Shown: positions 54,424 to 57,400 of the stretch, piece after piece | How the letters are laid out: every line of letters begins with the position of its first letter | Position numbering within the stretch: position 1 is the stretch's first letter | NCBI GenBank assembly: GCA_000934665.2 | Contig: KZ538262.1 | Location: forward strand, 1 to 64,000 | Origin: Catajapyx aquilonaris | Taxonomy: Eukaryota | DNA: 64,000 nucleotides | Direction of reading: 5' to 3' | Made by a program: the position numbers and the translations under genes | The notes under the pieces: generated by a model | Database searches by the model: none | Told to the model about the DNA's origin: nothing | The model's input: the letters and a program-made list of their open reading frames with translations, nothing else

Positions 54424-57400
54424 TTAAGTGGTGACGTCCCATATCTCGGCTAGGAATGGTGGCAGCTTCTTGTTTTTGAGCTTGAGCGAGAAGCACATCT
54501 CCGAGTTGAGGTTCCCCAGGGTGCGCAGCTCCGTAAGCACTGAGAGGAGCTTGGCAAACATTGGGGTAGGCCTTGCCCTGCGGAAGTCCACATACGCCCT
54601 CAAGGCTTCCAGGTATATCTCCTGGATCTTTTCTACCTTGCGAGGTTCCAGCAGAGCAGGCCTCTCTGTTGGGATAAGGAATTAACCATGAGCAACCTCT
54701 GAATCAGAACAAATTGAATTAATCTTGCTTATCAATGCAATACTTCTGTATGATCAAACCTGACTTGTTTTTCTTAGCCCCAAGAAGAGTGACGGATAAC
54801 TCACCCGAGAAGATGACAACAGCGGTGAGCAGGGCGTACTCGGAGTTGTCTACCTTCATGCTGCACATCTGCCTGCAGAAGTGGAAGATGGCCTCTGCAG
54901 AGTCCCCTACCCCAGCCATGCTGTAGTTCTCCAGGTTGTACGGATGGTTGTTTGCAAACAGGATGGTGTCTGTGTCTGCATCGTACCTCCTTGCGGTCCT
55001 CAGCATCATCACCTCGCTCGAACAAGCCTGGAAAAACAGGAGAGGCTCACAACATGCCACAACTAGCAAGCTGACACTGGAGCTCTAAAAGGTGCTGCTC
55101 CCATCCCATCATGCAATGCATGCATAAAATAGCCTGTCTTCGTGGAATTAGGCATAGCCTCTATATGACTTGTCTCCCATTTAAAAATAACTGATGCATT
55201 TTCTGCATGCAAAACTTCTCGAAAAATGTGTCATTACTAGATGAATGGTGCAAATTATTGCAATGCTCAGGGTTTGGTAATTAAGTGAATGTAGCTGAAA
55301 TCAGTTTTACTTCATTTTTAATTTTCAAATTAATTTTTATTATTCCATTACTAAATGAGCACATTCTTTAAAACACATCCCACTGTCTTGCCTACTAAAA
55401 TTACATTATTTAAGGAGACAATAATTTAAATTACTGCTTTAAGATTGAATTTAAGAAACGTTTTTCAACGAGGAAAAATAATATGATTCCCGCATAAGGT
55501 AAAGCTAAGTATTCCCCAGTGCTTCCAGTGTCAAAATATGAAATATGAGATATGATCTGCATTTTGACATAAGTAGCTCTGGGGCAGACCAATGTAAAAG
55601 TAAGGGGCAGGAATAAAGGTTCGGCAGACGTTAACAGTGTCCATGCATTAAAATAACCCCTAGAGATAAAATTACTGCTCAGTATTACCGTTGCATTTAA
55701 AATTGACCTCCACTATGAAGTACAAATAATCCCACCACCAACTTGGTCCCATCTTAAACGTGTTTTAAAAACTAGACCAAACTGCAGAATAATAATAATT
55801 GTAACGGATGAACTTCTTCCCTGTCATAATGGTTAAAATCATGCATTTAAAAAATACCACACCATTATCAATCTGGCTGAACTTGCAGAAAATACAGTGT
55901 GTCACACCTGAGTGACCTGAAGAGTGTCTATATTTTGGTGGGGGGGAGGGGGGGGGGCACCATAATTTTAAAAAACCGTTGGGTGTGGGGCGGGCCAAAG
56001 ACCTAATCCTGCCAATACCTTGAGCAGAGTAATCTGATCTTCCCGTAGTAAAGTATCGAACCCGGGAAGCCTCTTGGAAAACTCCACTGTGAGCTGCACA
56101 GTGAGGATGGTCATCTCCGTTATATGCTTGAATTTCGTCTCACTCTCGTCTGCATTGAGGGGGTAGTCCTAATGGGGTGTGTTTTCATACATTTTTTTTC
56201 CGGAGGTAATGGAGGTACGGGTCCAATTTGAGGATAGGTAGGTAGACAAGGTGGAGAGGGTAGAGAAAAAGAGAAAACAAAATAGTAAAAGTGATGTACC
56301 TTCAAAAGCGTAATCTGGTCCTCCCGCAGGAGTTTGTCGAAGCCTGGGAGCCTTTTTGAGAACTCCACTATGAGCTGGACTGTCAAGATGGTCATTTCCG
56401 TGATGTGCCTGAACCGCACATCGTTTGCGTTCTCGCCCTCGTAAGGGAAATGCTACATGGCCATCCCGCCATCATCGCACCGAAGGAAATGCATTGGTTT
56501 ATAGGTAGGTCAAGGGTTTTTTTGTGTTTTCGGGTTTGGAGTTTTTTTGGCGGAGAGAAAAAGAGAGAAAATAAAAAAAATTGAGGCAATCAGAGGACAG
56601 CGCTGACAAGAGAATTTGAATTGAAACAAGTAGGTTTTAAAAGTCTGGGCTGACCATTTTTCTTCAGCCCAGACTGGGTTTGAACCAGATTGTTATGAAT
56701 GCAAAAATTTTACCCTTGCTGTAAACTGACAGATGTGCAAGATAACTTCTCTTCAGTTGCAAGCATTAGAAAGCAACATCCTCCCAACGCATCATAAAAA
56801 TGCCAATGTTTAGCTAACTTGAAAGAAAACTTAGTCACCATTGATCTACCCTTGTCCCACAACTAAGTTGAAAATCAGGTAAAATTTTTGCTGCACTCTC
56901 ACATTAAGCGTAGTCTGGCAACAAATGCTACTGATACAACAAAGCTTAACTGACAATAATGTTACTGCGTGGCACTCGGTGTACATTTCTCGCATCTGCT
57001 GCATTGTTGTCAGACTCCACAACAAATATTTGCCATGTCCATCTCCACAGTTCATTCCCATCAATTAGCAGTTAAAAAATAAGCAAACAGAGCAAATATA
57101 CGAGTAACCACACAGTACCTTGAACAACCAATGTCTAAAGCTGACAAACCACAACACCACAAGAGTCAGATTCACCAAAAACAAACAAAAATCAAAGAAC
57201 AGGTTTGTAAGTAGTATAATGAATTGAAGACATTCACAGGACTCGCACTCTCAATTGTACACACACACATAGCACATACATCCACGAAAGATTGTCAAAA
57301 AGACACACATACACCACAAGACGCACATGATTACGCAGTAAAAATGCAGCCACTTTCAAAGACAGAAGTACTCAAGTTAAAGAACTGCTGAAAAAATAAT

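Follow-up and report, generated by a model that had tools for sequence, protein, structure and literature searches.

The ecdysone receptor (EcR, NR1H1) is the master receptor of moulting hormones and the target of diacylhydrazine insecticides. The window analyzed here, a 64-kb stretch of contig KZ538262.1 of Catajapyx aquilonaris, carries an EcR gene on its minus strand, and two adjacent exons of this gene, which we call a and b, encode two versions of the same segment of the ligand-binding domain (LBD). Exons for the DNA-binding domain (DBD), the hinge, and the LBD were placed in this order between 59397 and 54430 by tblastn with three EcR proteins. The gene is EcR: its DBD and LBD are most like those of EcR, the named proteins among the 120 listed matches of the exon a peptide are almost all EcR, and the listed matches carry the domain PF00104, mostly together with PF00105.

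Exon a (56300 to 56452, 153 nt, donor AAG/GTACAT; this and all other EcR features lie on the minus strand) is joined to its neighbors on both sides in spliced contigs and encodes the a-type helix-3 segment of the EcR LBD, recognizable by RFRH...LIVEF...DKL. Exon b (56019 to 56168, 150 nt, donor AAG/GTATTG) encodes the corresponding b-type segment (KFKH...LTVEF...DTLL). Each covers the end of the loop between helices 1 and 3 and helix 3 itself, and both exons are in phase 0, so that, as originally predicted, either keeps the reading frame. Helix 3 lines the ligand pocket and the cofactor surface, and the two exons therefore give receptors with potentially different pharmacology. A GT..AG intron of 131 nt (56169 to 56299) separates the pair. 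Upstream, across an intron of 1548 nt, lies a constitutive exon for the end of the hinge and LBD helix 1 (the H1 exon; 58001 to 58201; donor TCG/GTGAGT), which was found by tblastn and is bounded by the contig joints 58201>58311 and 56452>58001. Downstream lies a constitutive LBD exon of 223 nt (the NEXT exon; 54805 to 55027), likewise found by tblastn and bounded by the joints 55026>56299 (cut at +1) and 54665>54805. The intron between exon b and the NEXT exon contains a C-rich, homopolymer-like tract, CCCCCCCCCCTCCCCCCC, at 55930-55965, ~60 to 80 nt 3' of the exon b donor.

Transcripts were represented by the assembled spliced contigs of one public run, X1, the kind of which is not on record; in such contigs rare forms drop out. 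They confirmed six EcR introns with GT..AG ends, and they joined the H1 exon to exon a (58001 to 56452) and exon a directly to the NEXT exon (56300 to 55027), with exon b skipped. The positions of both exon a joints coincide exactly with the splice sites that homology predicts. No a-b joint was listed among these assembled contigs of a single run. Because contigs drop rare forms, X1 shows that an a-only form exists, not that a+b or b-only forms are absent.

AG-free zones and splicing signals around the exon pair

The a-b intron has a single AG, that of its acceptor at nt 130-131, and a second AG-free zone of 148 nt runs up to the exon a acceptor (56455 to 56602), the preceding AG lying at 56604-56603; both features had been described in the original prediction and were borne out by our scan. 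The AG-free stretch before the exon b acceptor is 129 nt long, and both zones therefore exceed the length of at least 100 nt that defines the class of AG-exclusion zones, whereas the AG-free zones at five other EcR acceptors measure 94, 65, 19, 16, and 29 nt. Beyond the zone before exon a, the next AGs upstream are 42, 5, 12, and 12 nt apart, a normal AG frequency. On the minus strand of the window, where the median gap between AGs is 11 nt, 13 of 3778 gaps reach at least 129 nt; six of the 13 sit in a satellite at 45506-47795, and two end exactly at the acceptors of exons a and b. The satellite comprises ~150 copies of a 16-nt unit, GTAACCCATATAGAGC, with 66% matches, and a similar piece occurs near 39586-39757.

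In 100,000 mononucleotide shuffles, the probability of finding no AG was 0.047 for the a-b intron and 0.00095 for the zone before exon a. The depletion is specific to AG: the a-b intron and the zone before exon a contain 0 and 0 AG, respectively, alongside 3 and 6 GA, 2 and 5 GG, and 12 and 21 AA, leaving 9 GA, 7 GG, and 33 AA in the two together. Gooding et al. recommend a composition control for such zones (PMC1431707), and the control is clean here. MAFFT alignment revealed no convincing homology of the two zones along their length; what they have in common is short motifs.

The pyrimidine tract of the a-b intron starts at nt 10, in agreement with the original placement ~10 nt past the exon a donor, and extends to nt 70 (56230 to 56290). 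Pyrimidine content in 20-nt windows is 0.80 to 0.90 over nt 11-70 and falls to 0.20 to 0.40 over nt 91-120. From the tract to the exon b acceptor runs an A/C-rich, AG-free spacer (56171 to 56229), and the pyrimidine-poor 3' part, within the last 30 nt, includes a run of eight A. At the head of the tract lies a predicted branch-site-like motif, TACTAT (56282 to 56287), part of a TACTATT at intron nt 13-19 that is the best match to TACTRAY in the intron (6 of 7 positions); YTNAY matches only once in the intron, with its A falling at nt 14. The predicted branch adenines, A14 (56286) and A17 (56283), would thus lie 14 to 17 nt from the exon a donor and 114 to 117 nt from the acceptor. At three of five constitutive EcR acceptors, TACTAAT, TACTAAA, or TACTCAT is found ~24 to 27 nt before the acceptor, and because these introns carry it there, the TACT-type motif family is plausibly a local branch signal.

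As had been predicted for the region 100 to 140 nt before exon a, CTGAT (56593-56589) and a T/C block (56580-56552) lie near the 5' end of the zone before exon a. The candidate branch A of CTGAT, at 56590, is 138 nt away from exon a, and the T/C block stands 100 to 128 nt from the acceptor. Branch-like sequence and a pyrimidine tract at the 5' end of an AG-free zone are therefore found for both exons, and at the level of motifs the layout matches the class of exons with distant branch points and AG-exclusion zones.

Three motifs occur in both zones, in keeping with the shared motifs noted originally: TCTCTTTTTCTCT (13 nt; 56274-56262 in the a-b intron) and ACCTACCTAT (10 nt; 56243-56234), which lie within the tract, and GAAAACACA (9 nt; 56186-56178), which lies in the spacer. 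The first two occur in the two zones and nowhere else on either strand of the window, and the third has one further occurrence. A common substring of at least 10 nt arose between the zones in 73 of 2000 dinucleotide shuffles, and one shared motif alone is therefore weak. The a-b intron also contains TACCT-type motifs (TACCTACCTAT, GTACCTCC, and TTACCTCC, at 56200-56245), complementary to the 5'-splice-site-like sequence AGGTA; folding predicted no pairing of these motifs with the exon a donor.

Two features lie elsewhere in the window. A neighboring gene at 24436-29055 on the minus strand encodes two WW and several FF domains (Pfam WW, FF, and FF_PRPF40A) and is a PRPF40-like pre-mRNA processing factor, and a trypsin-like fragment lies at 11384-11944.

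Related loci and the age of the two exons

Scanning metagenome contigs with both exon peptides yielded 54 loci, six of which (L002, L005, L008, L024, L033, and L049) carry a-type and b-type exons in tandem. L049 was left out of the intron-length count because of its irregular structure: in this locus (158-1159), exon a is split by an extra intron, and a second copy of the exon 3' end, followed by AT rather than GT, stands ~48 nt before exon b, with ~600 nt of unrelated sequence between. Measured to the in-frame acceptor, the a-b introns of L002, L005, L008, L024, and L033 are 47, 36, 51, 35, and 63 nt long. Other introns in these loci and in L003, estimated approximately from the ends of tblastn hits, are ~72 nt or more, and in all five delimited loci the a-b intron is the shortest of the estimated introns. 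L024 has TACTATT at nt 14 of its 35-nt a-b intron, as against nt 13 in the window. In L033, TTAAT occupies nt 15-19 of the a-b intron; behind it come a long T-rich tract and then a spacer of purines, short and free of AG, a layout that looks like a smaller version of the a-b intron of the window. Judged by these layouts, the 131-nt intron of the window looks like an expanded form, with extra sequence that would have been added 3' of the branch site and tract and kept free of AG. The AG-free zones before exon a span ~95, 73, and 52 nt in L005, L008, and L033, and the 148-nt zone is therefore not clearly conserved.

No spliced a+b transcript was seen among the 54 loci, and two of them, L001 and L006, are a-only mRNAs. 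L002 (1466-2252) is a transcript-like, partly spliced contig: all its upstream introns are gone and exon a is joined upstream, but it retains exon b together with the introns on either side of it, the a-b intron of 47 nt and a next intron of 122 nt. L001 seems to represent the a-form, with splicing complete, in a very close relative, which suggests that the intron from exon a to the NEXT exon is removed late. L003 (79-1090), from the same metagenome as L005, L008, and L024, has an a-type exon alone, with 72-nt introns on both sides, which indicates that exon b has been lost in some close relatives.

The two exons of the window are old tandem duplicates, with 36 of 51 aligned residues in common and 77% nucleotide identity over 117 nt. 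Among the 35 codons for identical residues, 20 differ synonymously, which marks the duplication as old and without recent gene conversion. Over a 39-codon core, exon b differs from its counterparts in L008, L024, and L002 by 23, 19, and 26 codons with synonymous changes only and by 0, 0, and 1 amino-acid-changing codons, counts from which exon b is seen to be under strong purifying selection; purifying selection acts on exon a as well. A tree of 43 rows, which has just 50 columns and leaves many forks unresolved, unites the a-type exons of insects, decapods, the springtail-like loci, and the window in one clade (support 94/90), with the b exons of the same genomes outside it. This separation points to one duplication before the malacostracan-hexapod split. 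b-type exons (KFKH...DTLL) are found in decapod b isoforms, including entries labelled Callinectes sapidus and Scylla serrata, and in Daphnia magna, Artemia, ostracods, and a springtail; a-type exons are found in insects, springtails, and decapod a isoforms. Decapods, springtail-like genomes, and the window have kept both exons, insects have the a-type only, and Daphnia, Artemia, and ostracods have only a b-like exon. The exons of the window are 88 to 93% identical to springtail-labelled proteins and 78 to 84% identical to those of decapods.

What may keep exon a from being joined to exon b

On balance, we favor a steric block of a-b joining by a distant branch point as the best explanation for these observations. 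Exon b would be spliced through a distant branch point, TACTAT at intron nt 13-18, which would be served by the long pyrimidine tract directly after it and followed by the AG-free spacer; the 3' splice site of exon b would then be the first AG downstream of the branch, 114 to 117 nt away. The branch would lie 14 to 17 nt from the exon a donor, below the steric threshold of ~50 to 60 nt, and adenines in the first half of the tract, if used instead, would still lie less than ~50 to 60 nt from it. Under this proposal, U1 at the exon a donor and U2 at the exon b branch site would be too close to assemble productively on one intron, and because of this exon a could not be joined to exon b. Exon b would be reachable only from the donor of the upstream exon, with exon a skipped, and the exon a donor could be joined only to the exon after b. 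Since the intron is 131 nt long, length alone cannot block a-b joining in the window, and a distant branch point would be needed; in the relatives, whose whole a-b introns are 35 to 63 nt, intron length by itself keeps donor and branch close together. The distant signals upstream of exon a are not needed for exclusivity because the intron in which they lie is 1548 nt long. In any case, proteins that bind the CU-rich tract and the shared motifs probably regulate the pair, as they are needed for the selection of one exon over the other and to avoid the skipping of both. The anatomy of the intron, the short a-b introns of the relatives, and the joint from exon a to the NEXT exon that skips b all speak for the steric reading put forward in the original prediction, and its placement of the exon b branch point within ~20 nt of the exon a donor finds a matching motif in TACTATT; this position is assigned from the motif, and a conventional candidate exists as well. 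The anatomy, the AG-specific depletion, the joint from exon a to the NEXT exon, the very short a-b introns of the relatives, and the purifying selection on both exons are observations, whereas the position of the branch point, the block itself, and the use of exon b in this organism are inferred.

Several points weigh against this explanation. The branch site is a motif prediction, and the YTNAY and TACTRAY consensuses are loose, general ones that may not be those of this genome. A relaxed search for TNA[CT] finds, in addition to A8, an adenine in the spacer element CCATTACCT, A93 (56207), which is separated from the acceptor by 38 nt and from the donor by 93 nt, and CTCAA at nt 71 is a four-of-five match. 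By the standard of this gene, in which a 109-nt intron also occurs, an a-b intron of 131 nt is not a short one, and the shuffle probability of 0.047 for the AG-free a-b intron, taken alone, is weak. The constitutive hinge and H1 acceptors also lack a pyrimidine-rich last 20 nt (0.45). The two exon a joints in X1 have 29 and 27 letters on their shorter side, below the 31-letter rule, and exon b has no joint in X1 and a contig depth of 0 over most of its length, which in assembled contigs is compatible with expression as well as with silence. Finally, gene models with a and b in tandem exist for Homarus americanus (a partial model), Procambarus clarkii (isoform X4), and two Petrolisthes species (P0001-P0005). 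These are probably annotation artefacts; they could also be real double-inclusion transcripts, and should any of them reflect real transcripts, a can be joined to b in decapods.

Some of these points recur in the alternatives. If exon b used a conventional branch point such as A93, protein regulation would become the main rival cause of exclusivity: repressors or activators bound to the CU-rich tract and the shared motifs, whether PTB/hephaestus-like or others, would determine which exon is defined, and a-b joining would be physically possible but held at a low level by regulation. We regard this as a real, if minority, possibility. A93 is a TNA[CT] candidate at a conventional distance of 38 nt from the exon b acceptor, the occurrence of three motifs of 13, 10, and 9 nt in both zones, the two longer ones being found nowhere else, suggests protein-binding elements, and the decapod gene models with both exons in tandem point the same way. 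PTB-type regulation also goes with distant branch points in known cases (PMC1431707), and for the mutually exclusive Rdl exon 3 pair of insects, a dependence on RNA-protein interactions rather than steric hindrance has been reported (PMC13762713). However, the 20 nt past A93 are only 40% pyrimidine, and the run of eight A falls in the last 30 nt; moreover, such regulation leaves unexplained both the lack of AG along the whole a-b intron, where GA and GG persist, and the retention of a-b introns of 35 to 63 nt in the relatives. It is improbable, in our estimate, that the AG-free zones merely reflect composition and that exon b has become a silent relic in this organism, in which case exclusivity would need no enforcement. 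The shuffle probability of the a-b intron, the missing contig cover of exon b in the single run X1, and the other long AG-free runs in the window would be compatible with this idea, but 19 to 26 synonymous against 0 or 1 amino-acid-changing codons in comparisons with three relatives are not what a relic would show. Nor does it account for the loss of AG alone, with GA and GG present, or for the finding that two of the seven long AG-free runs outside the main satellite end at two homologous acceptors; in addition, b-type isoforms are real decapod cDNAs (Callinectes and Scylla; Eriocheir Es-EcR-4, PMC5636884).

In principle, one exon at a time could be picked by competing RNA structures in which a docking site pairs with selectors, as it does in Dscam and 14-3-3, and the two similar pyrimidine tracts could both pair with one purine-rich site. 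Weak inverted repeats exist between 56553-56570 and 57714-57731 (18 nt, 83%) and between 56200-56215 and 58120-58135 (16 nt, 81%), but 38 inverted pairs of such quality occur in 3.5 kb, with low complexity or 8-bp cores. The a-b intron and its flanks fold with z = +0.74, 161 of 200 shuffles being at least as stable, and the 35- to 63-nt introns of the relatives leave scant room for selectors. With a fold no better than that of shuffles and inverted repeats at chance level, we rejected local RNA structure and consider a docking-site/selector explanation very improbable. Two other mechanisms do not fit. Nonsense-mediated decay cannot police double inclusion of a and b because both exons, at 153 and 150 nt, are multiples of three and are in phase 0 on both sides, and incompatibility of U2-type and U12-type splice sites does not apply, as the donors GTGAGT, GTACAT, and GTATTG, which go with AG acceptors, are ordinary GT types unlike the U12 donor consensus.

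Precedents and significance

Smith and Nadal-Ginard (1989) and Southby et al. (1999) are said to be the original sources for the alpha-tropomyosin and alpha-actinin exons, the vertebrate systems that the steric block would most resemble. In alpha-tropomyosin, the distance from donor to branch is 42 nt, longer than the 14 to 17 nt predicted here. In alpha-tropomyosin exons 2 and 3 and in the alpha-actinin NM and SM exons, the downstream exon has its branch point and its long pyrimidine tract near the upstream donor (PMC1431707, PMC7969005). As at the EcR locus, the alternative exons of these genes are adjacent, an AG-free zone extends to the acceptor, and both exons are in frame; unlike in these genes, the branch point here is predicted, and the setting is a nuclear receptor gene of an arthropod. 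Exons 4a and 4b of OGDH have mapped distant branch points 25 to 41 nt from the 5' splice site, with a threshold of ~50 nt, and this distance has restricted intron size over long evolution in what is a vertebrate-only system (PMC7969005); an insect study sets the steric threshold at 60 nt (PMC13762713). Like EcR, OGDH combines an AG-exclusion zone with a pyrimidine tract of great length, and its size restriction parallels the a-b introns of 35 to 131 nt. In OGDH, the branch points were mapped by experiment; here, six genomic examples are the basis for a constraint that would extend across both crustacean-like and springtail-like lineages.

Among human exons, AG-exclusion zones of at least 100 nt predict alternative splicing (Gooding et al. 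2006, PMC1431707). This class, like the EcR pair, has branch-like sequence and a pyrimidine tract at the 5' end of the zone and a normal AG frequency upstream, but its statistical definition comes from human exons, and the thresholds may not hold in arthropods. In Caenorhabditis elegans, mutually exclusive exons separated by introns below the minimum of ~40 nt are never joined (PMC4165533). These pairs resemble L005 and L024, with their a-b introns of 36 and 35 nt, in having exons of a multiple of three nucleotides and an intron below minimal size; the 131-nt a-b intron of the window sets it apart from them. Exon 17 of insect Dscam (Yue et al. 2013) is reportedly a comparable exclusive pair with a short intron.

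Within EcR itself, b-type and a-type proteins are known from several decapods, a group to which the organism of the window does not belong. In Eriocheir sinensis, the 150-bp exon 7 of Es-EcR-1 to -3 is replaced by another 150-bp segment in Es-EcR-4 (PMC5636884), the same gene and the same position as here, and the Es-EcR-4 quantitative reverse transcription-PCR primer encodes part of a b-type peptide. Table S2 of its supplement lists 150 bp for exon 7 and 2289 bp for intron 7 but does not locate the alternative exon; the article terms the event exon skipping plus intron retention and proposes no mechanism of exclusivity (PMC5636884). A full-text search, outside of which most subscription journals fall, found no paper describing EcR LBD exons as mutually exclusive or explaining such exclusivity, and it yielded none on springtails either.

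The mechanism itself is textbook, and the gain would be a new, old, and biologically important example rather than a new principle. The locus offers a simple, testable mechanism for the alternative LBD forms known from decapod cDNAs, and it flags the published tandem-exon models of Petrolisthes, Homarus, and Procambarus (X4) as probable annotation errors. Together, the window and the related loci suggest that the size of the a-b intron has been constrained over a very long time. More tentatively, the a/b pair may predate the malacostracan-hexapod split and may have been kept as an exclusive switch by a branch point near the exon a donor, through tiny introns or, as here, through a distant branch and an AG-free spacer, with insects having lost b and branchiopods a. 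If true, this would make EcR a sterically locked hormone-receptor switch several hundred million years old and the arthropod counterpart of the intron-size restriction of OGDH.

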